From a virus, in IMG/VR virus record IMGVR_UViG_3300027733_000040, positions 1 through 64,000 of that record: a stretch of 64,000 bases of DNA; one strand, written 5' to 3'. Each line of letters begins with the position of its first letter. Position 1 is the stretch's first letter. The translations under genes and the position numbers were made by a program. Positions 9,117 to 60,344 of this stretch are shown in pieces. The notes below the pieces were generated by a model. That model had not been told where the DNA came from and made no database searches. It was given only the letters and a program-made list of their open reading frames with translations.

Positions 9117-9130
9117 AAATTTAAGCTCTT

Positions 9131-30561: not shown

Positions 30562-31212
30562 ATGCTCCGATTAAAAAATGTTACATTGTTTATGGCTGAT
30601 GGGCGCACGGATAAAAAATCTTTTGAAAGCTCGCTTTTTGCTGTTAGGCAATGCATTGATAAAGTCGATTTTGGTGAAGTGATATTTCAATCGGCTTACG
30701 ATTCAGATATCACAGGTGTCGGCTATAAAAAAATAAAGCCAATGGTTATCGGTGAGTATAGTAAATTAATCAGTGGTAGTCTTACTGACCACATCAATAC
30801 TAAATTTGTTCTTGTTGTTCAACATGATGGTTTTATTCTTAACACTGCTAATTGGAATCCTGATTTTTTAAATTATGATTATATAGGCGCACCGTGGCTT
30901 TTGGAAGCTACCAAAAGACCCAACTGCCGAGTAGGTAATGGAGGGTTTAGCCTGCGTAGTAAAAAGCTTTTAGATGTTTGTAAAAAGCATTACGGCGGTA
31001 CCTGGGATAATGAGGATTGGCAAATTTGCCTTGTCAATAAGCCATTATTTGAATCACACGGTATAGTGTTTGCGCCTTTAGATGTAGCAACGTGGTTTTC
31101 GATAGAATCACACATACCTGAATATGATCATGATATTAAAAAGCGCTTTGGGTTTCATGGGCCGCGCCAATATGAGGCTGTGAATGCAGCTTATGGGTTT
31201 GATCTTAAATAA
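30562..31212 (+). CDS. DUF5672-family glycosyltransferase-like protein
   Basis: VQHDGF, YDYIGAPW, VGNGGFSLRS, NED, FGFH. Confidence 0.8.
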   Translation: MLRLKNVTLFMADGRTDKKSFESSLFAVRQCIDKVDFGEVIFQSAYDSDITGVGYKKIKPMVIGEYSKLISGSLTDHINTKFVLVVQHDGFILNTANWNPDFLNYDYIGAPWLLEATKRPNCRVGNGGFSLRSKKLLDVCKKHYGGTWDNEDWQICLVNKPLFESHGIVFAPLDVATWFSIESHIPEYDHDIKKRFGFHGPRQYEAVNAAYGFDLK

Positions 31213-31221
31213 AAATACAGT

Positions 31222-31863
31222 ATGAGAAAATTATTAGTCGGTATACCTGTAATTTATGACGTGGCTTGTGTTAAGAGATGCTTAGCCCATGTTATTGGTG
31301 CCGACGGTATCCTTATAATCGACAATAATGCCACACCTGACATAAAAAAATTAATAGAGCCTTACAATAAAATAATTAATGCTAAGAATGTTTATGTTAA
31401 TCCAGCTTGGAATCAATTAATGGAGTATTTCTTAGCACATCCAGAGTTCGATACCTTAATTATCCTAAATAGCGATATTTATCTTAAAAATGACGTTTGT
31501 GCTAAGATAAAATTAATAGATCTTGATACTCAGAAGGTAATTCCGCTTGTGACTGGCGTTAGTGCCTTTTCCGATTCTCCCAACCCGACAACACAAGTAG
31601 TGCAGGATGGCGTCCCTGGCGTCTTCATCTGCTTGTCGCGCAAGATGGTTGAGTTAGTTTATCCGATACCTGGGGAGATAAAGTTATGGTTCGGCGATAA
31701 TTGGATATTTGATAAACTTAAATTGTTAGATTATAAAATGACCGTTTATAGCGACCTTCAAGCCATCATGGACTGGAGTCGTAGTATAGGTCTGCTACCT
31801 GAAGCAAACACAATAATAGAGGAGGATAAAAAAGCATGGAGCCTAATTTCAAAGAAGATATAA
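31222..31863 (+). CDS. GT2-family glycosyltransferase
   Basis: IIDNN, VNPAWN, ILNSD, WFGDNW. Confidence 0.75.
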   Translation: MRKLLVGIPVIYDVACVKRCLAHVIGADGILIIDNNATPDIKKLIEPYNKIINAKNVYVNPAWNQLMEYFLAHPEFDTLIILNSDIYLKNDVCAKIKLIDLDTQKVIPLVTGVSAFSDSPNPTTQVVQDGVPGVFICLSRKMVELVYPIPGEIKLWFGDNWIFDKLKLLDYKMTVYSDLQAIMDWSRSIGLLPEANTIIEEDKKAWSLISKKI

Positions 31864-32444
31864 CTCACGTTGATATTATAAACCATCTGATCAGAGCATA
31901 TAATTTTAAATCTTATTTAGAGATAGGTGTTCAAGGTAAAGTATGCTGGGATAAAATCGTATGCGCAGATAAAGTAGGTGTCGAGCCGGTCGGGGAAATG
32001 TTCGATGATAGGATCAAGTCGATGAATAGTGATCAATTCTTTGATCAGAATGGTCAGAATTTCGATTTGATTTTTATAGATGGTGACCATGATGAAGCGC
32101 AAGTCACAAAAGATATCTTAAATTCCTTGAAATATATAAACCCAAATGGCGCAATAGTTCTCCACGATGCCTATCCGCCTAGCGAGGATTTTGCTGTATC
32201 TTATAGGTGTGGAACAGTGTTTAGGTCGATATGGCACATTAGACATATAGCAAATATTGGGATTGTAACTTATACTGGCGATTTCGGGGTAGCTGTAATA
32301 AGAAAAAAACCTAGCATAAATAAGTACCACGCTAGCGTCGGATCTTATAAGGAATATATGGCTGCTTCTGACAATCTGATAAACAAGTGTGATTATTATT
32401 CTGAATTTAAAGAAAAGATAATCGCATTATTTAATAATGATTAA
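31836..32444 (+). CDS. Methyltransf_24-like SAM methyltransferase
   Basis: YLEIGV, SDQFF, DLIFIDGDH, IVLHD. Confidence 0.8.
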   Translation: MEPNFKEDITHVDIINHLIRAYNFKSYLEIGVQGKVCWDKIVCADKVGVEPVGEMFDDRIKSMNSDQFFDQNGQNFDLIFIDGDHDEAQVTKDILNSLKYINPNGAIVLHDAYPPSEDFAVSYRCGTVFRSIWHIRHIANIGIVTYTGDFGVAVIRKKPSINKYHASVGSYKEYMAASDNLINKCDYYSEFKEKIIALFNND

Positions 32445-42993: not shown

Positions 42994-43764
42994 ATGGCAA
43001 ACTATTGTGATAGCGCCGTTTTGGAGAAAACCTGGTACCTTTGGATACTGGGTTCGTCACACCCAGATCTTGAACAATACAGGGCCTACAATTTATTGTA
43101 TACAAAACCCTGTTCGCCGGCAATGGTTGACGGGAAAATTCTTAAAAAACATGGGAAGGAATTGCTTGACCCTAGATCTGAGTATAAAATACATTGCTTA
43201 GCCCTTCCTATCCCCGTTTTTTTCAAATCCCGTAATAACATTGTAACAGGTCGATATCGTCTTTGCAATATCTCTTCTAAGACTCCTTTCACACTAGATA
43301 GACGTTTGTTCACTATGGATAATATGTTTATGGGAAATGCGCTTAAGAACAACATATTTAAGCAGAAGTTAGAAGTGATCCCTAAGCTTTTAGAAGAAGG
43401 GTATATCAAAGAGCAACCGACTTCGGCATCATGGCATGACCTTCTTGCTGATATTGGTAAGATGTGCACAGGGATTAGTATGCGTTTTAATCTCTTGAAT
43501 GACGACGAATATAGTGATCTCTCAAATGATGCACTATTACAAGTGATAAATAAATTAGTTAACAATAGGTTAGTATATACCCCCGGAAGAGCACCGGTAT
43601 TTAATTTACTTACCACTACCATACATCGTTGTATGTTTAGTCTGCTTAATAAAAAGAATAGTCAGAAAGCTGGTTTAAATAAATTATTGTCAGATTCTCA
43701 ATATAATCTTATACCAAAAATTAATAGGAGTCTTAAGACCCTGACACATAACCCGAGAAAATGA
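42994..43764 (+). CDS. T4 gp55-like late sigma factor
   Basis: C-half KMCTGISMRF...DLSNDALLQV...YTPGRAPVFNLLTTTIHRCMFSLLNKKNSQ matches the gp55 region-2 pattern; AGGAG SD. Confidence 0.6.
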   Translation: MANYCDSAVLEKTWYLWILGSSHPDLEQYRAYNLLYTKPCSPAMVDGKILKKHGKELLDPRSEYKIHCLALPIPVFFKSRNNIVTGRYRLCNISSKTPFTLDRRLFTMDNMFMGNALKNNIFKQKLEVIPKLLEEGYIKEQPTSASWHDLLADIGKMCTGISMRFNLLNDDEYSDLSNDALLQVINKLVNNRLVYTPGRAPVFNLLTTTIHRCMFSLLNKKNSQKAGLNKLLSDSQYNLIPKINRSLKTLTHNPRK

Positions 43765-43765
43765 C

Positions 43766-44755
43766 ATGAGATATAATAGGGCCATTTCGCCTAATGCTGT
43801 ACACAGCTCCCATCTGCTGACAAGATTAAAAGCTCAAGCTGTTAAAGTGTCTATTGTAAATGGTCCTCAGCCAGGTGTGCGCCACCAGCAGCGTTCTGCT
43901 CCTTTACCTCCTAAGCCCGAAAAGCCACCCACGAAGATCCAAGATAGTGCAAGAGTTGCGCCCAAGAAGGCGGGGGCAGTCGAAGTTCGCCAGCAGCAGG
44001 CGATGCAAAGACAGGATATAAAGAAAAAGCGAGAGCCACGTGTTACTTATGTATCACGGACAGTTGACCCGATCTACCTAGAAAAGACAAAAGCCTTAAA
44101 AGATACCGGCCGAGGAAAAACGCTTATAATAATAGGCAATGGGCCGACGCTTAATGAGGTTGATTTAAGGGGCCTTAAACATAAACCAGGTATAGAATTT
44201 CTATCTGTGAATTATCCTGATCCTAGATTATGGCCAACTGACTATTGGGCTTTCTTTGATTCATCTCAGATTCAGCGACACGCTGCTCTTTGGGATGAAT
44301 TCAATGGAACCATCTTTAATTCTTCGTCGATACAAAGACGAAAGACAGGGACCATCCAATTCAGAAATATAGGTGTTAAATCATTTAGTAAGGATTTAGT
44401 AGATGGTTTATGCATAGGCAGAAGTAGCGTATTCGCTAGCATGCAAATCGCGCTTTGGATGAATTTCGATAAGATATACATTTTTGGCGTCGATATGAAC
44501 CCATCGACAGATTTAAAGAAATTACATTTTTACGGAACAAATCCTGACGTATTACCAGAAAATAGGGCAAAAAGGTTTGAAAAGGAAGCGGAATACTATG
44601 TTACAGCTTTTGAATCGATGTCAGAGAAGGAGAGAAGTAAGTTTACTTTCTGCAGCTCTGTTAACCCATGGCCCTTTATGTCTATGTTTAATAAACTAGA
44701 TCATAAGGTCGCTGCGTCCGAAATTTTACGTGATTATTTAAACCCCAAGGAGTAG
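43766..44755 (+). CDS. Maf/MptE(DUF115)-like, sialyltransferase-like glycosyltransferase with disordered basic N-terminus
   Basis: IIIGNGPTL, SVN, FFD, SSVF, IYIFGVDM, HFYG. Confidence 0.7.
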   Translation: MRYNRAISPNAVHSSHLLTRLKAQAVKVSIVNGPQPGVRHQQRSAPLPPKPEKPPTKIQDSARVAPKKAGAVEVRQQQAMQRQDIKKKREPRVTYVSRTVDPIYLEKTKALKDTGRGKTLIIIGNGPTLNEVDLRGLKHKPGIEFLSVNYPDPRLWPTDYWAFFDSSQIQRHAALWDEFNGTIFNSSSIQRRKTGTIQFRNIGVKSFSKDLVDGLCIGRSSVFASMQIALWMNFDKIYIFGVDMNPSTDLKKLHFYGTNPDVLPENRAKRFEKEAEYYVTAFESMSEKERSKFTFCSSVNPWPFMSMFNKLDHKVAASEILRDYLNPKE

Positions 44756-44762
44756 AAGGTCG

Positions 44763-45152
44763 ATGACTAAGATTTACGTTGCATCAAGTTTATATAACAA
44801 AACCAATGTTAAGGCACTCTATAAATATCTTGCTTATTTACAATGTACTATTACTTATGATTGGACCACTCATGGTGGTGTAAATGATGAGGCTTCGCTT
44901 AAAGAGATCGGGCTCAAAGAATACCAAGGTGTTGTCGATTGTGATGTTTTGGTTATGTTAATGCCTGCGAGGCTTGGTTCGCATGTCGAGCTTGGTATAG
45001 CTTTAGCGCTCTGTAAACCGGTCATTATTATTACTAACGGTGAAGATTTCGAGAAAAAGTCATTTTATTTCTTAGACCATGTAAATATTATCAGAGATAT
45101 TGATGCTCTAAAAGGCGCACTTGATAAAATCACGGAACAAGAAAATGACTAA
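44763..45152 (+). CDS. Nucleoside 2-deoxyribosyltransferase / nucleotide N-hydrolase family protein
   Basis: KIYVASS, YDW, CDVLVMLM, GSHVELGIALALCKPV, carrying the catalytic Glu of the NDT/DNPH1/MilB fold. Confidence 0.75.
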   Translation: MTKIYVASSLYNKTNVKALYKYLAYLQCTITYDWTTHGGVNDEASLKEIGLKEYQGVVDCDVLVMLMPARLGSHVELGIALALCKPVIIITNGEDFEKKSFYFLDHVNIIRDIDALKGALDKITEQEND

Positions 45153-45822
45153 TGGCGAACTGCTCACCAGAATAGAAATAGATGTTTTCCAAGGAAACGA
45201 AATCCTAGAATCCTTTGAATTAGCTCATAAGTACCGTCTGCCTGCGATCATAGTACATCCTTCATTAAGCTCTGATGCTTTGGTTTGTAGAGGCAGATCA
45301 AAAGGGAAGTATAAGATCATCACGCCGGTAGATTGGCCTAGGGGTGAAGTCTTCTCTACAGATAAGTTCAAGGGTCTAAGCTTAGATTCTTTAGAGACCG
45401 ATGGTTTTGAGATATACATATCGCCAAAAAAGCAAAAGGGCGATATCAGAAAAGAAATAATTTCGTGTACAGAGTTTTTAAAGAAGTTTATTGGCGAGCT
45501 TTGTGAAATAAGATTCGTCATAGGCACAAGGACTAAGGATGAAGCTGATCTAGCGAGTGCTTATGAGGCCTTTCGTGATCTAAAGACACCGACTTTAATT
45601 CGAGACGATATCTCCTTGAAGACTCAGAATTACAAGGCCAATCCAGCTATACACAGCGCTTTTATCACCAACATGTCGCAATTCTTAAAATGCCCGATAA
45701 AAGTAAGTGGTAATCTTGACTGTATTGAAGATTTACTGGCCTGCGAACCTGCAAAGCGATTTGGTGCCAGTCTTCAGCAGACCAAAGGCATAATTAGAAG
45801 TATTAATACGGTGAAAAAATGA
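45145..45822 (+). CDS. DeoC-like aldolase TIM barrel, probably catalytically altered
   Basis: VHP, VDWPRG, IKVSGN and RFGAS match the DeoC layout, but KTSTG is replaced by RDDIS. Confidence 0.6.
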   Translation: MTNGELLTRIEIDVFQGNEILESFELAHKYRLPAIIVHPSLSSDALVCRGRSKGKYKIITPVDWPRGEVFSTDKFKGLSLDSLETDGFEIYISPKKQKGDIRKEIISCTEFLKKFIGELCEIRFVIGTRTKDEADLASAYEAFRDLKTPTLIRDDISLKTQNYKANPAIHSAFITNMSQFLKCPIKVSGNLDCIEDLLACEPAKRFGASLQQTKGIIRSINTVKK

Positions 45823-46115
45823 ACATTATTGAAATATTAGACCAGTTAGATGATGATATCGGTCTTTTATTTAAGACCGAGCAATGGTTACATTCAGAAA
45901 AATCGCGTGTGTCAGCTGAAGCTTCTGACATACTAAACAGATTAAAAGCAATTGACAATGCTATAAATCTGAAGAAGGTATTGAATAACATAGACATTGG
46001 GGCTTTAAGGCATGCCTACGATGATGGTTTCCACGGAAAAGAAAATTTAATGCTTGAATTGATCAAATCCTATCTGAATAATTCTTCGGCGGAGGCTCAA
46101 GATGCAACGCGGTAA
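45819..46115 (+). CDS. Hypothetical coiled-coil protein
   Basis: Overlaps both neighbours; GGTG SD. Confidence 0.55.
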   Translation: MNIIEILDQLDDDIGLLFKTEQWLHSEKSRVSAEASDILNRLKAIDNAINLKKVLNNIDIGALRHAYDDGFHGKENLMLELIKSYLNNSSAEAQDATR

Positions 46116-47301
46116 GTTCAATGTGGTTACTGATGGTCAGTTCGGTAGCACCGGAAAAGGGCTGATCACTTCTTACCTTGCACAAAAACACAGACCCGAA
46201 TTTTTATCAAACACCAATATGGCCAATGCTGGACACACAGCCGTTAATGTAGATGGCACTGCTTATATCGCTAAAGCAATGCCATCGGCTGCGATATTAA
46301 GAAAATGGCTACCTGATTACAATCCTTGGATAATAATGGGTTCTTCTTCTGCATTTACGCTACCGCAGCTAATGAAAGAAGTCGAAATAACTGGAAGTGT
46401 CGATAGGCTTATTATTCACCAAAGAGCTATGGTGATCACAGAAGAGCACAGGCAAAGGGAAAACGAAGGCAAGGATAGCACAAAGCATTTAGCGAGCACG
46501 ATGCAGGGCTGTGGGGCCGCCATAGCAGACAAGATCCAAAGATTGCCAGGGACCAAGCTTGCAGTTGATTACGAAGAATTAAGTCGATTTGTATTTTGCA
46601 AAACGTGGACACGACCTTCTTCTATATTAGAGGATATGTCTCTTTTTGATCCATTTAATGTGATGTGTAAACACCATTGTGAAGCCCTACACGAATACAT
46701 TGACTGTGTACTCAGGGCTACGTTCACTTTTCTCCACGAAGGCGCTCAGGGATTTTCGCTTGATATCAATCATGGCCACTCATATCCTACTTGCACTAGC
46801 CGCGGTACATCGGCAATTCAGAATTTAGCCGATATGGGTATTTCGCCCAAGTTCCTTGGTGATGTATATCTGGTACTTCGACCATATCCAATAAGAGTTG
46901 GCAATGTGATCGAAGATGGTGTTCAGCAAGGGTATTCTGGTGGTGGTTACGATGACCAAGTCGAAATCGATTGGGAAGAAATAGCAAGAAAATCTGGGAT
47001 GCCGCTAGAGTACGCTACGATATTAAGAGAGAAAGAGAAAACCACCGTTACAAAAAGGGTTAGAAGGGTGTTTTCTTTTTCTAAAAGGCAACTGCGTGAG
47101 GCCGTGATGGTGAATGGTGCCACTAAATTAGCTCTTAATTTTGCTAATTATATCGACTGGGCTTGCTTTGCATCATCATCAAAAGACAAACTTACCCCAA
47201 AGATCCTTGATTTTATAAAAATGCTCGAGGATGTCGCCGGAATACCTGTAACGCTTGTTGGAACTGGCCCACAATATGACCACGTCATTGACCTATCGTA
47301 A
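46102..47301 (+). CDS. purZ: PurZ, 2-amino-deoxyadenylosuccinate synthase (adenylosuccinate synthetase paralogue)
   Basis: DGQFGSTGKG (Ser where PurA has the catalytic Asp of GDEGKG), NAGHT, ST.QG, EGAQG, YPTCTSR, RPYPIRV, TTVTKRVRR, NFANY (PurA has TKLD); GGAGG SD. Confidence 0.85.
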   Translation: MQRGKFNVVTDGQFGSTGKGLITSYLAQKHRPEFLSNTNMANAGHTAVNVDGTAYIAKAMPSAAILRKWLPDYNPWIIMGSSSAFTLPQLMKEVEITGSVDRLIIHQRAMVITEEHRQRENEGKDSTKHLASTMQGCGAAIADKIQRLPGTKLAVDYEELSRFVFCKTWTRPSSILEDMSLFDPFNVMCKHHCEALHEYIDCVLRATFTFLHEGAQGFSLDINHGHSYPTCTSRGTSAIQNLADMGISPKFLGDVYLVLRPYPIRVGNVIEDGVQQGYSGGGYDDQVEIDWEEIARKSGMPLEYATILREKEKTTVTKRVRRVFSFSKRQLREAVMVNGATKLALNFANYIDWACFASSSKDKLTPKILDFIKMLEDVAGIPVTLVGTGPQYDHVIDLS

Positions 47302-48067
47302 TAATCTAGAAGTCTCGGCTTGCATCGACGAACATCATGATAATATTGATGAATCTATAGATCTAATTAGAGCTACTGGATTTAAATCAGCGTCTATACT
47401 TAATATAAATGGATTGTCGCTCACTTCTTTACCAGACATTACTATAGAGAGAATTAAGAAAAGACTATCGGATATGCCGATAAATGTCATAAGGATAGAG
47501 TTAGGTCATGGAAAAACAATAGCTCCAAAAGATATAGACAAAGAATTATCGATAGCTTCTTATTTTAAAGCTAAGGCGATCCAAATCGGCATCGAAAAAT
47601 CATCATTTCTCGATAAGGCGAGTTTCGATGATTTTATCAGTAGATTATCATCATTTGCTGTGTCGATGTCATTAGTACCGATATTAGAAATGACTGATCA
47701 TATGTTTATTGACACACCAGCCGATCTCGATAAATTCTTATCGTCACATAAAAGAATTAAGTTATCTTATGATCCATGCCGTTTTATGGAAAGAAGCAAT
47801 AAAAATCCACACGAACGCTGGTTTGAACCTCTTAAGACGAGTGTTTACAGTATAATAGCAAGAGATTTTAAAACAGGCTCCGGTTTTTATCCTATTGGCC
47901 AAGGCGCTACCAATATTGTTAAAGCTATAGATGAGCATATTTTAAACGGTGGTAGATACGCTATATTTAGACCGTCACTTGGAAGACGGTATGGTAGCAC
48001 AGTCGGAAAGAAAGAAACATTTAAGTTAGCTTTGGAAGTGTTTAATAATCTATTCAGGAGTATTTAG
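47276..48067 (+). CDS. Xylose-isomerase-like/AP_endonuc_2 TIM barrel, degenerate
   Basis: ACIDE, PILEM, SYDP, ARDFK and PIGQG resemble sugar-phosphate isomerase/epimerases; the His and last Glu ligands are not evident. Confidence 0.55.
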   Translation: MTTSLTYRNNLEVSACIDEHHDNIDESIDLIRATGFKSASILNINGLSLTSLPDITIERIKKRLSDMPINVIRIELGHGKTIAPKDIDKELSIASYFKAKAIQIGIEKSSFLDKASFDDFISRLSSFAVSMSLVPILEMTDHMFIDTPADLDKFLSSHKRIKLSYDPCRFMERSNKNPHERWFEPLKTSVYSIIARDFKTGSGFYPIGQGATNIVKAIDEHILNGGRYAIFRPSLGRRYGSTVGKKETFKLALEVFNNLFRSI

Positions 48068-48280
48068 ATGCTTAATGTCAACGAAGCAATTCAGAAGATA
48101 AAATCTATCGGAGCCAGCAACGTTAGAATAGTTCCGATGGCTGGTCAGCCGATCAATAATGGTGATCATCAGATCGAGATTAAATCCGGAGCTAGTTGGG
48201 AATCGATTGTGTCTGGTGTAAAAAAGAAAATGGCAGAAGACATTGTAAATCAAGCTATAAACAAGGTTATCCTTGGTTAA
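48068..48280 (+). CDS. Hypothetical protein
   Basis: AGGAG SD, 70 aa. Confidence 0.65.
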   Translation: MLNVNEAIQKIKSIGASNVRIVPMAGQPINNGDHQIEIKSGASWESIVSGVKKKMAEDIVNQAINKVILG

Positions 48281-48720
48281 TGATAAAGAAAATAAAATCC
48301 GTAATAGAATTGTCCAAATATAAAATAGGTAATAAATTATATTTCATAGATTTATACACAGATTCAGACAGGGATTTAATACAAAGCGATTTAAATTGGA
48401 TGTTGGCTTGTCACCCTAAAATTTTCTTTGTCAAAAAGATATATAAATACAATACTAAATCGAAATATATATGTCCTAGACTTCCTAGTGCTGTTTTTAG
48501 TATATTATCATCTCTGTTAGTAGGTCAATTTAATATAATATGCTTTGAAGTTTCAGCGATTAAACGCTGTGCCAATACCGGCGAATTCTATTATTTCGAT
48601 GGTAGTGGCGACTGGCACCCAGAATCGATATTATTCACCACAGAGCGCAAAGCGCTTAACGAAAAGAAGCGAATTTTATCGCTGGTTGATGATTGGGCTT
48701 CGCACAATCGTGGCGATTAA
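48280..48720 (+). CDS. Hypothetical protein
   Basis: TAATG-coupled ATG at 48280. Confidence 0.55.
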   Translation: MIKKIKSVIELSKYKIGNKLYFIDLYTDSDRDLIQSDLNWMLACHPKIFFVKKIYKYNTKSKYICPRLPSAVFSILSSLLVGQFNIICFEVSAIKRCANTGEFYYFDGSGDWHPESILFTTERKALNEKKRILSLVDDWASHNRGD

Positions 48721-48729
48721 ATATATTAT

Positions 48730-49254
48730 ATGAAGATAACTAAAGTTAATATATCCTTACCAAAGGTCGCTCAAAAGCACGATTATGACTGCGGAGCTGC
48801 AGCTTTAAAGTCGATATATGAATATGAACACCCAGAAGACAAAAACGACTTATCAAAGTATACCAGATTATTAGGTAGCACTAAAAATAAAGGGACAAGC
48901 ACGCAAGAATTAGTTGCAGCTTGTAAGTTATTAGGTCTTAACTTTAAAGAATACCATGGCATGTCACTTTCTAGGCTGCATAAAGAAATTAAGATCGGAA
49001 ACCCGATACTTTGTCTCATAAGATCGAATGATCATGGCCACTTCGTAGTGGCTTTGGGATGTGATGATGATAATATCTATTTCGAAGATCCTTTTAAAAA
49101 GAAAAATAACGGCTATTTGCCTAAAAAAGAATTTTTCGAAAGATGGACAGATGGCGATAACCATAGCGATCTTAAACGGTTTGGATTGATTTTTAAGGTA
49201 TCGCGTCCAAAAACAAAAAAGAAAATTACAGCCTATAAGATTTTAGGAAATTAA
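48730..49254 (+). CDS. C39-family cysteine peptidase
   Basis: QKHDYDCGAAAL (Gln, Cys), GHFVV (His), FEDP (Asp). Confidence 0.85.
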   Translation: MKITKVNISLPKVAQKHDYDCGAAALKSIYEYEHPEDKNDLSKYTRLLGSTKNKGTSTQELVAACKLLGLNFKEYHGMSLSRLHKEIKIGNPILCLIRSNDHGHFVVALGCDDDNIYFEDPFKKKNNGYLPKKEFFERWTDGDNHSDLKRFGLIFKVSRPKTKKKITAYKILGN

Positions 49255-49255
49255 T

Positions 49256-52200
49256 ATGGCAGATAATACAGATATAACGAGATCTAATTATGTCGAATTA
49301 ATCTCTGTAGATGTCGATTCAATGCTAATGGTGTGCAATGATAAGTACAAGACCGTTGAGAGCAGCTTGCCTAGGATTTTGAACGGTATAGATTATCAGG
49401 CTTGTGATGCGCTTGCTGTTGTTGCGCCGCCAACAAATAAATTTGTGACAAATGTAGAAAATGTTCCAGGGTCTTTAAGAGAATTAGTAAGACGACCCAA
49501 TGTTATTCTCACATCGTTTAACGCTATTAGTTTTTTAGGTCAGGATATTAATTTAGACACCACCGATAATATACCAACTATCACGTCGACTATTCCGACT
49601 CTGCCTGATATTAATTGCCAAAAATTTGGCACTTCGGTCTCTTGCAAGAAGAATAGTGACAAATGTTCCATCGATTTGCATTTTATAGATGCTTCGAGTT
49701 TAAATACCGGCATTGCCCCAGGCAGAGCGTTACTCCAGACCAACAAGGCCCTGCTTAGCGGTGGGTATGATTATCGATTGGCTATATCTAAAGTCAGAGG
49801 CACACCAGAATATATCGGGTTTTTCGCTGGTAAACAATACTATAAGCTTTCACTAAATACATTAAAGGGTTTTTGGGATAATTCTTGTGAGAATGACAGG
49901 ATGATGGTCGATAAGTATGCCGCAATGGTTTCGGAGCCTGTTAATTCTTCTACAGTAAATCTAATCGGTGTTTCAACTGCTAACGCTTTTACATATGGTT
50001 TTAATAGTCAGTCATATGGTAGTCTTAGTAATATTGCAGTCTCATCCATAGTGAGATCTGTCGGGTTTAAGATGGAGCTGGCATTAACCAGTTCAGGTAA
50101 GGCGTTAGATGGAAGCTGGCGGTTTGATCTTGCGCCGGCCAGTGGCCTTAACCTTAACCCTATGTTTAACACTAGCGGTCGCACGGGGCCATTAAATTAT
50201 CAAATATTAATCGATTCGACTAAAAATCTATCGGGAATGGCCGATAATGATTTTTCTTTAAACGGTGCTGATCTTAAAAAAGTAGAGCCTTCGGATTATC
50301 TGCGATTTAGATCCTTAGCGACTAAGATCTTTTGCATTTATGTAGATCATCGTACTACTGGATTAGCATTAGACGATAACTTTAATTTTATAGATTCTGC
50401 GGTCGGCGGCTCAGACCAATTTGAGGCATTTAGGCAAGCCATACAATGTGGCCATAAGTTTTTGTTTATTTTAAATGACGAAACGATAAGCGCGTCCCAA
50501 GATTACTATAATTTTGTAGCGTCAGTCGGTATTGCTAGCGCAGCGGTTGTGCTAATAGATAGTCAGACCGCAGCGGGCGGTGAATACTTTGACCAGATAT
50601 TTAGCTCTATAAATACTTTGTGCGGTTATGTTGGTCCTAACACGACACCAGGTGTATCGGCTTTTGGCTCTGTTAAGGAATTATGGCAGGGAGGATCGCT
50701 TTTTAAAGGTTCTAATCTTAAATCATTAACTCACTTCAAGATAAATAGTAGCTACACGTCACCAGACACGACTCCGCGGATACCTGAAGTATTAACTAAC
50801 AATGAATCTTTAATTAGTTATGATTCTGTATTCGATAGGATTCTTTATATTGAGCAATCAGACGATTCCGTCTATAGATTATTTGCCATGAATATGAAAA
50901 CACGTGAACGTTCTGCAATTGCACCTTTACCTTTTTTGTTCGATATTGTGATAGGTTTAGACAGCAATGTTCCTTCAGTCCAAATGTATGACCCTGGAAT
51001 GCGGTTATTTTTCATTGGTACTAGTTCTGGACATCTATATTCGGTCGATGTTACGACCGGAAAATCGTCAGAGATCGTAATAAACTCGATAGACTTTGTG
51101 CCAAGGCCAGAGCGGCGATATCCATCTATTACAGGGATTGGTATAGGGTATGTTCCATCTTACGATTACAATGGGGTTACTGATTTTTCTGGCCATCGTG
51201 CACTGTTTGTAGGATTCAATGCCGCAGGTTCGAATGATATCAAGCGTTATAGTATCTTGCGATCTTATGTTTATGATGTGTTGGTCTTTAATAAAACAGG
51301 GATAGCATCAAAAATAACACCATTAGTAAGTCTTGATTTGCCTTTGGCTGGAATGGCGAATCTGCGCAGTTTTAGTTTTATGTGTGCTCCAGTTTTTAAT
51401 TATCTTATTAAGAATTTGCCTGCCACACCGGTCTCAGAATTTGTTTCAAACCAGAAATTGCCTGGTCTTTTGTTATGTTATGATATTATGGACACCAACC
51501 AGAATCAAATAACACCGGAATCTGGACGTTGTGTTGCGATAAATCCGTTGATTCTCAATAAAGTGTTTGCGAGTCAAGCAAGCATCCAATATAACATATT
51601 AGATACTTTTATTATACCGGCTTATTATCCTGTTACCAATCGTGCCGATTGGGTTACGATTGACGATTTTGGCGGCTCGGTTATCTGGTCCTCATTAGAC
51701 ATTACGCCCACGAAAACAGTCCTCGATTATTATTATGTGCCGGTACCTCCTGCTGGCGTTGACAATAAAGGCATCGAATTTTTCCCTTCTCTTGCTGTTT
51801 TATTAAATAGCTATGAGGCTGGCGGCAATGTTAGTAGTATTTTCTTCAGAGATTCTTTAGAATGTTCCGTTGGTGTAAAGGGTGTCGAGAGGCATGACTT
51901 TGGGCCTAAGAATATGAATTGTTGGGACCTTAGTAATAGTGCTTCAGCCCCTGTGTCTGATTCTTTTGTCGGTAATGAATTAGTTCTTAGATACGGAGAA
52001 TCTGTTAGTAAAAATTATAACCTCGAGGCCGGAAAATACTTTGTCACTATAACCACTTCCGATTATCGCATAGGTACTGACGATGCTGGGCAAAATCTTA
52101 CTGGTCTGGTTGATATTATTACTTCTGGAGGTAGCAGGTTCCATTATCTGCCAGCGCGACTAGATTCGACACCATTGGAAAAATTAAAGGTGCAATCGGT

Positions 52201-55200
52201 CCCTTTTCAAGGCGTTAACCCAACAGCTATAACCACAGCTGGATCATTAACCTACTTATTTGATATGCCAGCAGCGTTTAATATTACACTTAAGAATAAT
52301 TTAAAACCAGGGGCGATTACTTCTGAATTCGATAACACTAAATTCATTCCTCGTGGCGTTGGTGTCTACGGTATTAAGTTATGCAAGCTTCTTGATCAAA
52401 CAGTTATATTAGATGGTATAAAGGATGTAAAATTAAACATCTCAGTTACTGGTATACCACGCCAAGAAGTGAACATTTTTTCGGCATTTGTTAAGGTGAC
52501 TTACAGAGATTATGGAAGGCCAAATGTTAAAAAGGTCGCTTATCGCGAAGTCATTACGGACGGGCGTTCATCGCCGTATGCTGGTAACAGCGTGCCTGTC
52601 GATTGTGACTATAGCGACACATGCAATTATTGGAAACAAAACGGCAATGGCGGCATACCCTCACAGTATGTGCTAAATCAGATTAGACACAGCGATTCAC
52701 AGATGGAATCGACTACCAATTTTAAAATAGTCGATGTTACGTTATATAATAATTGCATCTGGTGTATACCAGCTGGATCGAGCAGGTTTGATCAAGCTAC
52801 TGGAAAATATGTTCCGACAGATACCGCAGATACTTATACCATATTCTTTGGTGATTTTAAAACAGATATGATTGTAGAATCTATAGAGTATTTCTTCTTA
52901 GTTAATAAGATAGTCGATACTTCGAGTACCCCGCCAACTTGTGTCGACAATAAATCAAATTGCAAACCTGACCCAGCAACAGATATTGTAGTCCACTTAG
53001 ATTACACTAATTGTAACAAAGAAATTAAGAGATTAACTCGAACTATAAATATCGGTTCTATAGTAGCAATAGAGCATGATCTTAGTAAAGTATTTCCTAG
53101 CAGTAGATGGGATTATATTAGACCACCATCTTCAAACGGAACGGCTTTGGGGCCACCAATTGGAAATGCTATTAACGGCAAAATAGGTGAATGGATATCA
53201 TTTAAAGAGATTCTAGATAATACGACCGGTACTGGCGCTGACCAGTGTTCCGCCCCTATTTCTAATCAGTTGATATATAATGGTACTTCTTTAACTTCCG
53301 ATCGCCCTACTGGCTGCGATATTCCAAATCCAAAAATCGGTGCTATAAGCCTTTTTGCTAAAAAAGTAAAACCTGCATTTGTCATAACTGACATATCTGA
53401 GACTTCTCTAACAAATGAAATTCAATATATTACAATACCGCAAGCCGATGGTGGCATCTTTAAGCTTACTTTTGCTAAAAATGGTGTAACCCAGACGGTG
53501 ACTGTTCCTTATAATGTAACAGCCGCTCAGCTAAAGACTATTTTAGAAGCGAACACGCTAATTGGTCCTAACAATGTTCTAGTTACAGCGGTCGGCACAA
53601 AAAGTTATAAGATTGAATTCGTTGGAGCATTAAAAGGTTTAGCTATTCCGATTATGAAACCCATAAGCGATGGTCTTATTGGAACGTATTTTGCTTATAC
53701 AAGTCGTTCAGTGGTTGGCACCAAAAACGAGAGGCAAACCATAAGCAATGTTTCTGCTTCTAACAGAGCTTTTACCATTTTTTTTGCCGGCCAACAAACG
53801 GTAACAATTCCATACGATGCTAGTTTGAATACTGTCAGGGCCGCTTTGTCTGCATTGCCTTCAATCGGCGGCGGGAATGTTGCTGTTTCTGGCCAGACTA
53901 CTAATTATGATGCCCCTTATACTGGCCCATGGAACATTGATTTTATAGGCACTTTTGCAGGAAAGAATGCATCTAGGCTCTCCACATCTAACAAGGACTA
54001 TGTTGTTTATGTCGATTGGGTCGGTGGTATAGGTGTTAATGAAGTGCAAAAATTCAGCTACAAGGCCAATTCCGGTAGATTTAGTCTATCATTGTATGGA
54101 CCGACTGGTGCTTTTTGTACAACAGCGCCGATCGAGGCCACAGCTACCAATAGCGATATAGTTAAGAGTATAGTAGCAAATTGTAGTTTTTATGCTGCTG
54201 AAGACATTGGGTTAACGTTAGTCCAAAACGGAAATGTTTACGACTGGACTATAGAGTACAAAGGCAAGGCGACAGCCCAACCTGTTAAGCAGATAGGTAT
54301 ACAATCAGTCGATCTTGTCGGTGACGAAGTCACTGTTGTTAGAGTAGAAAAAGGTGGCGGTAAGCCACAAAAGATTAGATGGTCGTATACAAATGCCACA
54401 GCAGGTTTTTATATTTTAAGATTCGAATCAATCGATAAGCATATTTATTTTTCAGACAGGATATATTATAACGCTACGGCGGCAGAGATACAGACGATCA
54501 TAGAGAGTATGACTTTATTTGCGCCTGGTGACGTGACGGTTGTCCAATTAGACATAGGTGTTGTTGGGTCATACGAATATGTGCTTACTATTAAAAAGAA
54601 AATAAGTGCACTACAAGTTACAGCCATTTTTGAGACCACGTTATTTGGAAGCCCAATTTCATATTATATCGTGCCTGATGGGCCATATCCTTACCCATTG
54701 CCTTATTGTCCGTCTTTGACGCCTAAGATACATGGTGTTGATGGGTTGGTCTGCGTGCCTTTTCCTCCCGAGGAGGGCGATCCTTTTGCAGATGAGATAT
54801 GCTGTACCCCAGAGACCATATCTAGCGCTGCAAATAAATCGACATTCTTTAAGATCGAAAGAGATCTTTTCAGTCCTAGTTTTCAGATTAATGGTAAGTT
54901 AGCCACTGTGGGTTCGCTTATGGCGGCTAGGAATTTTAAGAAAAGCATTTATAAACCTTACTATTTAGTATCTAATACCTGTGTCGACCTTGTCGAGGCG
55001 AAATACACAGATGAAATTAAGAGCCGGACCATTATCGTGATTATTAATAAGAAGGTCGATCTTGAAGTCCCTAAGATCAGAATTATAAACCGCATCAAGA
55101 GTAATTATCCTAAGCTTGATTATTGTAGAGCTTTATCTTTTGAGAAAAACAAGGGTGGTCAGGATTTTCCAGATATATTGCCAGATAAAAACTATAATAT

Positions 55201-55204
55201 ATAA
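49256..55204 (+). CDS. 1982-aa putative virion protein with a propeller-like region and four ~105-aa NE[IVR]Q-type repeats
   Basis: Repeats NEIQYI...GGIFKLTF...IPY[ND]A...L..I..GNV.V...IEFVG at about 53410-54590. Confidence 0.6.
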   Translation: MADNTDITRSNYVELISVDVDSMLMVCNDKYKTVESSLPRILNGIDYQACDALAVVAPPTNKFVTNVENVPGSLRELVRRPNVILTSFNAISFLGQDINLDTTDNIPTITSTIPTLPDINCQKFGTSVSCKKNSDKCSIDLHFIDASSLNTGIAPGRALLQTNKALLSGGYDYRLAISKVRGTPEYIGFFAGKQYYKLSLNTLKGFWDNSCENDRMMVDKYAAMVSEPVNSSTVNLIGVSTANAFTYGFNSQSYGSLSNIAVSSIVRSVGFKMELALTSSGKALDGSWRFDLAPASGLNLNPMFNTSGRTGPLNYQILIDSTKNLSGMADNDFSLNGADLKKVEPSDYLRFRSLATKIFCIYVDHRTTGLALDDNFNFIDSAVGGSDQFEAFRQAIQCGHKFLFILNDETISASQDYYNFVASVGIASAAVVLIDSQTAAGGEYFDQIFSSINTLCGYVGPNTTPGVSAFGSVKELWQGGSLFKGSNLKSLTHFKINSSYTSPDTTPRIPEVLTNNESLISYDSVFDRILYIEQSDDSVYRLFAMNMKTRERSAIAPLPFLFDIVIGLDSNVPSVQMYDPGMRLFFIGTSSGHLYSVDVTTGKSSEIVINSIDFVPRPERRYPSITGIGIGYVPSYDYNGVTDFSGHRALFVGFNAAGSNDIKRYSILRSYVYDVLVFNKTGIASKITPLVSLDLPLAGMANLRSFSFMCAPVFNYLIKNLPATPVSEFVSNQKLPGLLLCYDIMDTNQNQITPESGRCVAINPLILNKVFASQASIQYNILDTFIIPAYYPVTNRADWVTIDDFGGSVIWSSLDITPTKTVLDYYYVPVPPAGVDNKGIEFFPSLAVLLNSYEAGGNVSSIFFRDSLECSVGVKGVERHDFGPKNMNCWDLSNSASAPVSDSFVGNELVLRYGESVSKNYNLEAGKYFVTITTSDYRIGTDDAGQNLTGLVDIITSGGSRFHYLPARLDSTPLEKLKVQSVPFQGVNPTAITTAGSLTYLFDMPAAFNITLKNNLKPGAITSEFDNTKFIPRGVGVYGIKLCKLLDQTVILDGIKDVKLNISVTGIPRQEVNIFSAFVKVTYRDYGRPNVKKVAYREVITDGRSSPYAGNSVPVDCDYSDTCNYWKQNGNGGIPSQYVLNQIRHSDSQMESTTNFKIVDVTLYNNCIWCIPAGSSRFDQATGKYVPTDTADTYTIFFGDFKTDMIVESIEYFFLVNKIVDTSSTPPTCVDNKSNCKPDPATDIVVHLDYTNCNKEIKRLTRTINIGSIVAIEHDLSKVFPSSRWDYIRPPSSNGTALGPPIGNAINGKIGEWISFKEILDNTTGTGADQCSAPISNQLIYNGTSLTSDRPTGCDIPNPKIGAISLFAKKVKPAFVITDISETSLTNEIQYITIPQADGGIFKLTFAKNGVTQTVTVPYNVTAAQLKTILEANTLIGPNNVLVTAVGTKSYKIEFVGALKGLAIPIMKPISDGLIGTYFAYTSRSVVGTKNERQTISNVSASNRAFTIFFAGQQTVTIPYDASLNTVRAALSALPSIGGGNVAVSGQTTNYDAPYTGPWNIDFIGTFAGKNASRLSTSNKDYVVYVDWVGGIGVNEVQKFSYKANSGRFSLSLYGPTGAFCTTAPIEATATNSDIVKSIVANCSFYAAEDIGLTLVQNGNVYDWTIEYKGKATAQPVKQIGIQSVDLVGDEVTVVRVEKGGGKPQKIRWSYTNATAGFYILRFESIDKHIYFSDRIYYNATAAEIQTIIESMTLFAPGDVTVVQLDIGVVGSYEYVLTIKKKISALQVTAIFETTLFGSPISYYIVPDGPYPYPLPYCPSLTPKIHGVDGLVCVPFPPEEGDPFADEICCTPETISSAANKSTFFKIERDLFSPSFQINGKLATVGSLMAARNFKKSIYKPYYLVSNTCVDLVEAKYTDEIKSRTIIVIINKKVDLEVPKIRIINRIKSNYPKLDYCRALSFEKNKGGQDFPDILPDKNYNI

Positions 55205-57719: not shown

Positions 57720-58004
57720 ATTTCTGAAGATGAATTATCAGAAATCAATAAGAAGTATTCCGCCATCCTTGATGACATTAAAATGTTAGAGGAAATGATA
57801 TCTATATTGCCTTCAAGAACAGCACTCGAACTTAGGAGTGTGTTTGGCAAAATTATGCGCGATATTGCCGTTTGCCACAAGGGTTTAGCAATTCTTGCTA
57901 AAGAAAAAGTGGATTCATTAGTATCAGATTTGAATTATATGTCATTTGATCTTGAAGCCACAAGGAGAGAGCGGGATGAATATAAAAGAAAACTTGGCGA
58001 ATAA
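57720..58004 (+). CDS. Small coiled-coil protein with FDLEATRRE motif, resembling a conserved small planctomycete protein
   Basis: YMSFDLEATRRERD. Start is either ATT at 57720 (AGGAG 6 nt upstream) or ATG at 57783. Confidence 0.6.
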   Translation: MSEDELSEINKKYSAILDDIKMLEEMISILPSRTALELRSVFGKIMRDIAVCHKGLAILAKEKVDSLVSDLNYMSFDLEATRRERDEYKRKLGE

Positions 58005-58992
58005 TTTAAAAAGAGAATCGATATTAATCACAGGTGGTGCTGGTTTTTTAGGTAACAAAGTCGTCCAATGTTTCATGGAAAACGGTTTTGGCTCAGAATG
58101 TGTAAGAGGCCAGAAAGCCAGACCTAATAATGTTTATATTAATCGATCAGTATTATTCGATCTTACTATTGAGTCACATGTTTCAGAATTGTTCAGCCGT
58201 CTATCGCCTACCATAGTTATACATCTAGCTGCTGCTGTCGGTGGTATCGGTGCTAATCAAAAAACACCAGGTTCTTTTTTTTACAAAAATGCCATGATGG
58301 GGATACTTCTACAAGAGTATGCTAGAAGGCATAATGTTAAAAAGTTCGTTACTATCGGCACAGTTTGTTCATATCCTAAATTCACGCCATCACCTTTTAA
58401 AGAATCAGATTTATGGAATGGCTATCCGGAAGAGACAAATGCGGCCTACGGCATCGCAAAAAAAGCCTTGCTTGTGCAGAGCCAAGCCTATCGCCAAGAG
58501 TATGGCTTTAATGGGATTCATCTGTTGCCCGCCAACTTGTATGGTCCGCTTGACAATTTTGATGATAGCACATCACATGTTGTCCCAGCGATCATCAAAA
58601 GAATCTACGAGGCCAAAAGAGACAAATTAGATCATGTAACCGTTTGGGGCGATGGTTCACCCACTAGAGAATTTCTATATGTGGATGATGCAGCGAGAGG
58701 TATAGTGCAAGCTACCTCGACATATGATAGTCCTGAACCAATAAATTTGGGATCAGGGAGAGAGATTAGCATAAAAGATTTAACGACCAAGATAGCTCAA
58801 ATAATTGGATATGATGGTCTAATAAAATATGATCATTCAAAGCCCAACGGGCAGCCTAGGAGGAGCCTCGATAGTACGCAGGCAGCACTAAAATTTAATT
58901 TTCAGACGACCACTGATCTTGACACAGGGCTAAAAACTACTATTGATTGGTATATTGATCACATTTCTTCTATTGGAGCAGTTAGAAAATAA
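57976..58992 (+). CDS. fcl: GDP-L-fucose synthase
   Basis: TGGAGFLG, HLAAAVGGI, GTVCSYP, YGIAK, NLYGP.DNF, SHV, WGDGSPTREF. Confidence 0.92.
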   Translation: MNIKENLANNLKRESILITGGAGFLGNKVVQCFMENGFGSECVRGQKARPNNVYINRSVLFDLTIESHVSELFSRLSPTIVIHLAAAVGGIGANQKTPGSFFYKNAMMGILLQEYARRHNVKKFVTIGTVCSYPKFTPSPFKESDLWNGYPEETNAAYGIAKKALLVQSQAYRQEYGFNGIHLLPANLYGPLDNFDDSTSHVVPAIIKRIYEAKRDKLDHVTVWGDGSPTREFLYVDDAARGIVQATSTYDSPEPINLGSGREISIKDLTTKIAQIIGYDGLIKYDHSKPNGQPRRSLDSTQAALKFNFQTTTDLDTGLKTTIDWYIDHISSIGAVRK

Positions 58993-58993
58993 A

Positions 58994-59791
58994 ATGAAAA
59001 GTCGTATTGAACGTGTTCTTCCAACCGCTTATCTTATAGGTCAAACGACACTTGATTTAGATCAATTAACCAAATATCTCGAAGATACTGACGCCAAGCC
59101 ATTCGTTAGAGAAGTAGAAGAAGCAAGATTTTCTGGTGTGTCTGATATGGAGATTATTTGTTCCGTATATGCTAAATTATGCTATAAATCTTTTGTCGTT
59201 GGTACGAATAAAAACATAACAAGAACGAGATCTATAAAGGATAACATCAAAGGATGTTTCGATGTTAAGCATGGCAGCATATTCGAGCATGTTTTCTTTA
59301 ATTTTATCATTAAAGATTGTTCAAGGATTTTTACACATGAGCTTGTACGACACAGGGTCGGCACAGCCTTTAGCCAAAATTCTGGGCGCTATATTAGAGA
59401 AGATGTGATACGTGTTGTTCTTAGCCCAGACATAGAGCATTCAAAAAAGATCGACGCTATCTTAGAGAATATCTGCGCCGGTTATGATGAGTTAGATTAT
59501 GAATTAGATATCGATTCTACTATAAGGTTCGACGAAAAGAAAAAATTAACCAGTTCTATCAGACGAATCCTGCCTAATATGTGCGCTAATGACATAGGTT
59601 TTACTGTCAATGTCCGAGAATTAAGACACATACTTTTGATGCGTACTTCCCGCCATGCCGAATGGGAAATGCGGTATGTTTTTGACAAGATTTATAAATT
59701 ATTACTACCAAAATATGGTGCCTTTTTCCATGGTTTGCATGTAGGGTCACATGAAGGATATGTAGAGATTACTGAGGAGCCTTATGTATAA
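58994..59791 (+). CDS. thyX: Flavin-dependent thymidylate synthase
   Basis: HGSIFEH, SRIFTHELVRHR, FSQNSGRY, RRILP, NVRE, HAEWEMR. Confidence 0.92.
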   Translation: MKSRIERVLPTAYLIGQTTLDLDQLTKYLEDTDAKPFVREVEEARFSGVSDMEIICSVYAKLCYKSFVVGTNKNITRTRSIKDNIKGCFDVKHGSIFEHVFFNFIIKDCSRIFTHELVRHRVGTAFSQNSGRYIREDVIRVVLSPDIEHSKKIDAILENICAGYDELDYELDIDSTIRFDEKKKLTSSIRRILPNMCANDIGFTVNVRELRHILLMRTSRHAEWEMRYVFDKIYKLLLPKYGAFFHGLHVGSHEGYVEITEEPYV

Positions 59792-60344
59792 AATAACTTT
59801 AGAAAGGCTCAATGGTAACGATTTGCCGCTACCTAAATTCGAGACAAGTGGTTCTGCGTGTTTTGACATATCAGCATGTTTAACACGTCGGATGTCTGAA
59901 TGCTTACTAAATGGAAGAAAAAAGCATTTTTTATATAAATGGCATGCTACGAATTTAAGGAAGTATGTTGAAGGACTAGAAGATGTATTTTCTGAAGAAT
60001 CAGAAATGTCACGGTTATACATTCATCCTAACGAAACCATTTTGATACCAACTGGATATAAAGCATCATTTGCTTCAGATTTAGTGTTAAAATTATACAT
60101 CAGGTCTTCTATCGGTTTAAATGGTCTCAATCTAGCTAACCAAGTAGGGATTATTGATTCTGATTATCGTGGTGAGATCTTTATAGCTATAAAAAACAAT
60201 TCTGACATCGCCCAGACTATAAACCACGGTGACCGTATCGCCCAAGCAATGCTTGAATGTATAGTTAAACCAGAGATCATTGCTGGTGTCGTTGATCCCA
60301 CAGCGCGCAATGATGGTGGTTTTGGCTCTACTGGAAGAAAATGA
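59784..60344 (+). CDS. dut: Trimeric dUTPase with an insertion
   Basis: Motifs SACFD, RSS, GIIDSDYRGEI, GDRIAQ, R.DGGFGSTG. Confidence 0.9.
   Translation: MYKITLERLNGNDLPLPKFETSGSACFDISACLTRRMSECLLNGRKKHFLYKWHATNLRKYVEGLEDVFSEESEMSRLYIHPNETILIPTGYKASFASDLVLKLYIRSSIGLNGLNLANQVGIIDSDYRGEIFIAIKNNSDIAQTINHGDRIAQAMLECIVKPEIIAGVVDPTARNDGGFGSTGRK

Follow-up and report, generated by a model that had tools for sequence, protein, structure and literature searches.

The DNA that we analyzed (the window) comprises positions 1–64,000 of the 96,988-bp IMG/VR record IMGVR_UViG_3300027733_000040, which is a fragment of a viral genome (27% complete according to CheckV). We focused on a block of genes around PurZ (2-aminoadenylosuccinate synthetase), which catalyzes the first step toward the DNA base 2-aminoadenine (Z). 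The block comprises nine genes on the + strand that lie head to tail from 42994 to ~48720, by the coordinates of their open reading frames (Table 1). Five of these genes overlap successively by 4 to 26 bases: they encode a protein related to nucleoside deoxyribosyltransferases (NDT-like), a DeoC-like barrel, the small protein cc98, PurZ, and a TIM barrel. The DeoC-like gene begins at an ATG (45145) inside the end of the NDT-like gene and overlaps its stop codon, with TTG 45121 as an alternative start, and its junction with cc98 is an ATGA overlap. The TIM-barrel gene has an alternative start at TTG 47255. Near the end of the block, the 146-aa gene starts at ATG 48280, which overlaps the stop codon of g70; the list of reading frames gives it 174 aa, from TTG 48196. 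A scan for promoters and terminators gave no signal better than that of shuffled sequence. A preliminary description of this DNA, made from the letters alone, had reported the five overlapping genes, and all five reading frames indeed exist on the + strand, each overlapping or directly meeting the next. The coupling of the five genes stands, but 44763–48067 is too narrow for the operon, as the block extends from 42994 to ~48720.

Table 1. Genes of the PurZ block and two nucleotide-metabolism genes further downstream, in window coordinates.
Gene	Position	Strand	Description and best family match
g256	42994..43764	+	256 aa, family unassigned, first gene of the conserved block; no Pfam or PHROG match
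g329	43766..44755	+	DUF115/MptE-like; PF01973 (E = 9.7e-6, below cut-off)
NDT-like	44763..45152	+	129 aa; PF05014 (E = 6.7e-6, below Pfam cut-off)
DERA (DeoC)-like barrel	45145..45822	+	225 aa; fold match by model, no Pfam match
cc98	45819..46115	+	98 aa, small helical protein; spurious Pfam match only
PurZ	46102..47301	+	399 aa; phrog_1211 (E = 2.6e-64), PF00709 (E = 1.5e-32)
Xylose-isomerase-like TIM barrel	47276..48067	+	263 aa; PF01261 only at E = 0.059
g70	48068..48280	+	small conserved protein; no Pfam or PHROG match
146-aa gene	48280..48720	+	conserved; no Pfam or PHROG match
ThyX	58943..59791		directly before the dUTPase-family gene
dUTPase-family gene	59784..60344	+	trimeric type; PF00692 (E = 1.8e-17)

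We aligned the window's PurZ with the PurZ proteins of S-2L, VP5, SH-Ab 15497, Bm1, and vB_BpsS-140, with the PurZ0 proteins of Ghobes and Wayne, and with PurA from E. coli. At the position of the catalytic Asp13 of PurA, which is aspartate in E. coli, the window's protein and all 14 of its relatives have serine (in the motif G-S-T-G-K-G). We took a list of PurZ-diagnostic residues from bioRxiv 10.1101/2025.10.22.683976. The equivalents of S14, F12, P233, Y244, W252, T262, F295, and Y298 of the phiVC8-type enzyme are all there, and all of the residues of the dGMP pocket (F, T, P, Y, and W) were found. The NTP pocket has F295 and Y298, as in the PurZ type, while Ghobes and Wayne PurZ0 have F or M and Q: the PurZ0 proteins deviate at Y298, and the protein from Wayne deviates at F295 as well. 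In a maximum-likelihood tree, the PurZ proteins of jumbo phages (see below) form one clade with support of 99/99, and this clade joins PurZ from S-2L, VP5, and SH-Ab, apart from the PurZ0 proteins of Ghobes and Wayne, although the support for the joint node is moderate (83/79). From the alignment and the tree, we identify the 399-aa protein as a genuine PurZ, of the PurZ type rather than PurZ0, and its pocket is that of the enzymes that turn dGMP, aspartate, and ATP into the succinyl intermediate of dZMP.

We scanned IMG/VR with PurZ and with profiles for the DeoC-like and g329 families and obtained ~35 distinct contigs. The genomes with the PurZ module form a clade of uncultured jumbo phages, with genomes of 320–408 kb and a DnaE-type replicase. 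The gene for the N-terminal part of DnaE (with the PHP domain; 1904–3304 in the window, - strand) is a good marker for the clade: identity is at least 47% within it, and the next DnaE in IMG/VR is ~30% identical. Searching with this marker, we found no members of the clade that lack PurZ other than short fragments; the rest all have PurZ.

A few of the relatives have unusual synthetase genes. In one of them, the PurZ reading frame is 1212 aa long (L031:8717-12355), pointing to an insertion, intein-like or of another kind, and in another PurZ is in two pieces, at 7995–9146 and 9233–9601 (L012:7995-9601). G012 and G015 (L170, L171, L173, L174) each have two homologs of adenylosuccinate synthetase: one is PurA-like (Pfam E = 1e-46 to 1e-48) and the other is PurZ, beside the DERA-like gene.

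The order g256–g329–NDT–DeoC-like–cc98–PurZ–TIM barrel–g70 is kept in the closer relatives. Among the deeper relatives, we detected neither cc98 nor the TIM barrel, and g70 in only some. The place of the short NDT, again directly upstream of the DeoC-like gene, is taken there by an NDT of ~200 aa that belongs to the Y-L-A-G-P type and matches PF15891 and PF05014 weakly. All eight genomes with a completeness of 98% or more have a PurZ-family gene. In all eight, an NDT gene adjoins the DERA-like gene; mostly the two overlap, and in G015 they are ~0.5 kb apart. This adjacency spans two subfamilies of NDT. In most genomes that have the pair, PurZ is within 1–3 kb of it. In the deeper L061, L070, L079, and L078, genes for an RNase_T-type exonuclease, ThyX, or dCMP deaminase lie between the DERA-like gene and PurZ (one of the deaminases carries a LAGLIDADG insertion), so the block sits in a region of nucleotide metabolism.

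The usual helpers of PurZ seem to be missing. Searches of all 96,988 bp of the record gave no match to PF01966 (HD), PF03819 (MazG), or PF04447 (DUF550). As this record covers only part of a genome, we repeated the helper searches in relatives that are 98–100% complete. The DatZ-type HD domain (PF12917) was not found in G001 (355 kb), G006 (354 kb), G007 (408 kb), or G008 (341 kb), and PF04447 had no matches in G001, G006, or G007, while as a positive control it finds S-2L, SH-Ab 15497, and Bm1. Nor did the DUF5664-DUF550 fusion protein from SH-Ab 15497, used as the query, match anything in G000, G001, G006, G007, or G008. MazG was not found in G001, the one complete relative searched for it. 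G001 does encode a single generic HD protein; we rejected it as DatZ, since BLASTP against DatZ from S-2L gave E = 0.67. This is the only HD gene found in the clade, and it follows a DnaE palm fragment that is possibly interrupted (L017:39-1914). In other words, the preliminary description's statement that the 64 kb contain no HD-domain DatZ and no MazG-like MazZ can be extended to the whole 97-kb record, and looking for datZ, mazZ, and DUF550 in full genomes found none in the near-complete relatives searched (for MazG, G001 only). The non-canonical neighborhood that it proposed for purZ is thus supported: PurZ is accompanied by no DatZ-, MazZ-, or DUF550-type genes that we could find.

The preliminary description overlooked a gene within its own 64 kb, a member of the dUTPase family that lies 14.6 kb downstream of the NDT-like gene, beside ThyX. 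(An NAD-dependent epimerase/dehydratase gene, at 57946–58992, precedes these two.) Five relatives each have one copy of the dUTPase-family gene. DutZ, the dUTPase homolog of the PurZ0 phages, hydrolyzes dATP and dGTP, which is the job of DatZ and MazZ (PMC12884076). The window's protein is 31% identical to DutZ from Ghobes and has an insertion of ~40 aa after motif I. By analogy, it is a candidate to stand in for DutZ in the conversion of dATP and dGTP to the monophosphates.

Two recent studies bear on the NDT-like protein. Poubanne et al. (NAR 2026; PMC12884076) showed that DmtZ, an NDT-fold enzyme of the phages Ghobes and Wayne, hydrolyzes dAMP, with adenine and deoxyribose-5-phosphate as the products, and that it also moves deoxyribose-5-phosphate onto the Z base. 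The catalytic triad of DmtZ is Tyr6/Asn77/Glu103, and Asp12 has been suggested to recognize adenine by its 6-amino group (PMC12884076). In the other study (bioRxiv 10.1101/2025.10.22.683976), NDT domains were enriched on Z-modified metagenome contigs, and one enzyme preferred dA. The preliminary description had suggested an undescribed route, by which adenine is removed at the level of dAMP or bases are swapped on deoxyribose. In outline, this route had already been published for DmtZ (PMC12884076), and it is also indicated by the metagenome association study (bioRxiv 10.1101/2025.10.22.683976).

When we compared a profile of the window's NDT family to the sequences in the PDB, the CMP N-glycosidase 4JEN, BlsM, and MilB came first (E = 7e-7 to 2e-5), and the nucleoside deoxyribosyltransferases ranked behind these N-glycosidases (E = 3e-4). 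Y5, E53, P68, G72, H74, and E76 are invariant in the family. The alignment with DmtZ from Ghobes (gp53) and the N-terminal domain from Wayne matches Y5 to Y6 and E76 to E103, and also includes W34, P68, and G72; hhalign finds a local match only (E = 4.5e-5). The catalytic Tyr and Glu of an NDT-fold enzyme are thus kept, which supports the preliminary description's assignment to this fold. At the middle position of the triad, where DmtZ has Asn77, the family has an invariant glutamate (E53), which is neither Asn nor Asp. The invariant Tyr5 occupies the position of the F17Y substitution in MilB, which shifts that enzyme's preference from CMP to dCMP (PMC4081090), so a deoxy substrate is predicted. 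We predict from these sequence features that the protein is a 2'-deoxynucleoside-5'-monophosphate N-glycosidase and a functional analog of DmtZ; its preference for dAMP is inferred from the gene context. A tblastn search with the NDT protein against 50,697 deposited phage genomes had no match.

The DERA-like barrel has no match in Pfam (up to E = 0.1, including PF01791) or among the PHROGs, and comparing the family's profile to PDB sequences gave only a chance match. Its AlphaFold (AF2) model has a pLDDT of 93.6, and the top matches of the model in Foldseek are all DERA, i.e. deoxyribose-phosphate aldolase (TM = 0.73–0.80, E ~ 1e-11). A search of 1.84 billion representative proteins with the family's profile found just 228 matches (clusters, counted without regard to annotation). 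This is far below the number expected if canonical DERAs had been caught, so these barrels appear, by their sequences, to be a separate closed family. A search of BFVD by fold found no close viral look-alike, and the only lead from the ESM Atlas was a DeoC/LacD cluster (score 0.84). Because tblastn with the DERA-like protein found no match in the 50,697 deposited phage genomes, the family is probably without a cultured representative. Some members have long C-terminal tails; we rejected the idea that these are fusions to neighboring genes, as they are low-complexity sequence.

We mapped the pocket by the order of the strands in the model, by motifs, and by global hhalign, not by superposition. 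The hhalign comparison to E. coli DeoC, either alone or with 12 close homologs, was not significant (E = 0.2–0.4) and was used for the register only; the homologs are all at least 80% identical to DeoC from E. coli, which is too uniform for a good profile. V-D-W-P-K-G in the window's protein pairs with T-N-F-P-H-G in DERA, and I-K-V-S-G-N pairs with F-K-P-A-G-G; R-F-G-A-S lies on strand 8. By this mapping, Arg153 is at the position of the Schiff-base Lys167 of the E. coli enzyme (strand 6), Arg123 is at that of Lys137, and Lys186 corresponds to Lys201 (strand 7). Among 229 sequences, K74 is invariant and the other three positions are nearly so (R123 in 222/229, R153 in 224/229, and K186 in 220/229). 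The five members with lysine at position 153 (P0207, P0225, P0229, P0236, and P0237) also have C123 and a hydrophobic residue (I) at 186, which is a coordinated change of the pocket. A pocket that is conserved and that co-varies looks functional. That arginine takes the place of the Schiff-base lysine of DeoC is in line with the degenerate barrel of the preliminary description, but its term "dead" was too strong for a pocket that is nearly invariant across 229 sequences and in which three residues co-vary in a subgroup. As mapped, the site is not of the classical class-I aldolase type.

A Lyase_1 gene (PurB/fumarase family, ~480–490 aa) is present in two complete relatives (G008:187727-188593 and G009:175576-176295), and six others lack it.

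Several other proteins are encoded in the block or near it. The model of the TIM barrel (AF2, pLDDT 88.7) matches ketose 3-epimerases, AsbF, IolI, and UlaE in Foldseek (TM ~ 0.65, E = 1e-10 to 1e-11). When mapped by strand position, the Glu-Asp-His-Glu metal ligands of these proteins are E138, D166, R196, and R232 in the window's barrel, and the full E-D-H-E tetrad is found only in relative L004. The barrel was not detected in the deeper relatives and was found in one subclade only. We conclude that the barrel, which is xylose-isomerase-like and has a weakened metal site, was added in one lineage and does not belong to the core of the module; the preliminary description's view of it as a general part of the module was not borne out, given the deeper relatives that are without it.

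Upstream of the NDT/DERA-like pair, g329 is found in almost all of the 34 loci identified with the g329 profile, and g256 is directly upstream of g329 in almost all of these loci, including the most distant. The g329 protein has a basic, low-complexity N-terminus, and 36 columns are invariant among 12 relatives. Its profile has a weak match (E = 0.23) to the sialyltransferase CstII that covers the GNGPS and G-x-D motifs, so it is possibly a nucleotide-binding, transferase-like protein. The cc98 protein evolves quickly: hidden Markov models find homologs in the same place in the closer relatives, and none were detected in the deeper ones. The g70 proteins of the relatives are 46–68% identical, and g70 is still detected in the deeper L061, L067, L071, L074, and L079, among others; in the closer relatives, it is followed by homologs of the 146-aa gene (140–147 aa).

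Beyond the block, the window contains a C39-type cysteine peptidase (PF03412, E = 5e-16), directly followed by a 1982-aa protein (48730–55204); matches to the C39 gene came from L001–L003 only, which are the closest relatives. There is also a run of nucleotide-sugar-type genes, with an NTP transferase (29906–30529), a DUF5672 protein (30562–31212), and a methyltransferase (31836–32444), which may serve glycosylation of the virion or of DNA.

How might these proteins fit together? We lean, with modest confidence, toward the view that they form a module for making the precursors of Z-DNA, in which PurZ is combined with an NDT that destroys dAMP, a DERA-fold protein that handles the sugar phosphate, and a dUTPase or host step on the dNTPs. 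In this module, PurZ would make the Z nucleotide from dGMP, and the pool of adenine deoxynucleotides would be lowered at the level of the monophosphate, in place of DatZ and MazZ. The N-glycosidase of the NDT superfamily would split dAMP into adenine and deoxyribose-5-phosphate, by analogy to DmtZ of the PurZ0 actinophages. The translationally coupled DERA-fold protein would then take deoxyribose-5-phosphate, or a close 5-phosphosugar, into its DERA-layout pocket. Because lysine is replaced by arginine at both the Schiff-base and the strand-5 positions, this protein might only bind the ligand, or it might carry out some chemistry other than class-I aldol cleavage. The step from dNTP to dNMP could be due to the phage's dUTPase-family enzyme or to the host, and the host would provide the lyase and kinase steps.

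Several observations weigh against this proposal. The NDT's likeness to DmtZ is only local (hhalign probability of 69%). The position of Asp12 of DmtZ, the proposed adenine-reading residue, is variable in the jumbo-phage family (Y, F, N, Q, R, D, H, S, or L). Without the Schiff-base lysine, the DERA-like barrel is unlikely to cleave deoxyribose-5-phosphate in the known way. The dUTPase-family gene adjoins ThyX, and its product is closest to ordinary phage dUTPases (36% identity). In three of the complete genomes (G009, G010, and G014), PurZ is 26–190 kb from the pair. Finally, because we found no member of the clade without PurZ, co-occurrence cannot be separated from shared descent.

Some of these observations would fit a different role, in which the NDT/DERA-like pair is a general unit for salvaging or sanitizing dNMPs (such as dUMP, hmdUMP, or dCMP; compare DNPH1 and MilB) and the link to PurZ reflects only descent and position in the operon. 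The nearest solved relatives of the NDT act on pyrimidine nucleotides, the family does not preserve Asp12 of DmtZ, the three genomes just mentioned have PurZ far from the pair, and the deeper relatives have the block among genes for ThyX, dCMP deaminase, and exonucleases. However, PurZ is present in every genome that bears the pair (8/8 of those that are nearly complete), mostly close by; NDT domains have been tied experimentally to Z-modified contigs (bioRxiv 10.1101/2025.10.22.683976); and we found no other candidate for removing adenine nucleotides in these genomes. We regard a general sanitizing unit as unlikely.

The view taken in the preliminary description was that neither barrel is catalytic and that both serve as ligand-binding or scaffold subunits, which would regulate NDT and PurZ or keep them together. 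Such a role is consistent with the arginine that replaces the Schiff-base lysine in most DERA-like members (224/229), with the arginines that replace the His and Glu ligands in the window's TIM barrel, and with the translational coupling of the gene starts. But the DERA-like pocket is nearly invariant and changes in concert (R123/R153/K186 or C123/K153/I186), which fits a working site; furthermore, no fused forms were found, and the TIM barrel is missing from the deeper relatives. We find a purely structural or regulatory role for both barrels rather improbable.

Alternatively, there is a slim chance that the DERA-fold protein is a new enzyme, in which Arg123 and Arg153 hold an anionic group, the pocket binds a 5-phosphate, and the reaction is a new step in base exchange. 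One possibility is a lyase that acts on PurZ's succinyl intermediate and makes the phage independent of the host for this step. We also considered that the barrel simply replaces PurB; this idea is weakened, as two complete relatives encode Lyase_1 and the barrel together, which is a mild argument against it. Another possibility is the activation or transfer of deoxyribose-5-phosphate, so that the sugar phosphate of dAMP ends up in dGMP or dZMP, and here the DERA-fold protein might work with the nucleotide-binding g329 that is encoded upstream.

Lastly, it is very unlikely that the product of the block is a nucleotide with further modifications or a base that carries a sugar, made with the help of g329, the epimerase-like TIM barrel, and nucleotide-sugar genes of the phage: the sialyltransferase-like motifs in g329, the barrel's resemblance to ketose 3-epimerases, the NTP-transferase, DUF5672, methyltransferase, and NAD-dependent epimerase genes in the window, and an epimerase homolog directly after PurZ in L072 are all suggestive, but these matches are all weak or generic, the barrel lacks two of its metal ligands, no known family of hypermodification enzymes was matched, and the nucleotide-sugar genes are 13–15 kb away and may serve virion glycosylation. 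The further-modified purine that the preliminary description had raised found no support in any of our tests.

Complete replacement of a DNA base has been studied best in phages with Z-DNA, and enzymes of the pathway are used in synthetic biology. If the Z-precursor module is real, then it extends Z genomes to phages of 320–408 kb that replicate with a DnaE-type polymerase, and it is a third combination of parts, with a PurZ-type synthetase and an NDT-type glycosidase. It also adds a conserved family of DERA-like partners (228 sequence clusters). If the DERA-like barrel is catalytic, its reaction on the deoxyribose-phosphate scaffold would be new; if its role is limited to binding, we would have a clear case of a pseudo-aldolase that was recruited into nucleotide metabolism. 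And if the barrel is the new enzyme described above, then the clade would have a self-contained pathway for converting A to Z at the level of the monophosphates.

It is useful to compare the block to the known systems, beginning with its individual proteins. The NDT-like protein has its best profile matches among the nucleotide N-glycosidases of the NDT superfamily (MilB, BlsM, and 4JEN; DNPH1 also belongs here), and it shares with these enzymes the P-x-x-G-[ST]-H-x-E-x-G nucleophile motif. It differs from them in having Tyr instead of Phe17 of MilB and in being shorter (129 aa), and the base-binding residues are not conserved. The DERA-like barrel shares with DERA (DeoC, PF01791) the (beta/alpha)8 barrel fold (TM up to 0.80), the motifs on strands 3, 7, and 8, the equivalent of Lys201, and, according to the sequence mapping, the phosphate-binding motifs of strands 7 and 8. 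In contrast, it has arginine at the positions of Lys167 and Lys137, it has the new invariant Lys74, and it has no sequence match in Pfam or the PDB. The TIM barrel shares its fold, and Glu and Asp ligands on matching strands, with the xylose-isomerase-like barrels (ketose 3-epimerases, IolI, and UlaE; PF01261), but the His and the second Glu are arginine, and its Pfam score is far below the cut-off.

As for the pathways, the block shares the PurZ subtype and the pocket residues with the canonical cluster of PurZ, DatZ, and MazZ or DUF550 (S-2L, phiVC8/VP5, and SH-Ab 15497). Unlike that cluster, it has no DatZ-type HD, MazG, or DUF550 protein that we could find, and there is no PolA-type DpoZ beside PurZ. 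With the PurZ0 phages (Ghobes and Wayne), it shares a synthetase homolog with Ser instead of Asp13, a nearby NDT-fold protein whose catalytic pair is Tyr and Glu, the presence of a dUTPase-family gene, and the apparent lack of DatZ, MazZ, and DUF550. The differences are that the synthetase is of the PurZ type; that the NDT is only distantly similar to DmtZ, without Asp12 and without the Pro57 segment; that the dUTPase is beside ThyX, and is neither adjacent to the NDT nor fused to it as DutZ is with DmtZ; that the genomes are 320–408 kb and have a DnaE-type polymerase instead of DpoZ; and that the NDT has a coupled partner with the DERA fold. Neither PMC12884076 nor bioRxiv 10.1101/2025.10.22.683976 makes any mention of jumbo phages, of DnaE, or of a partner that resembles an aldolase, and our literature search found no publication that links PurZ with DERA or with jumbo phages. 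So, relative to the literature, the NDT-based route from dAMP is already partly published, and what is new is the coupled DERA-fold protein.

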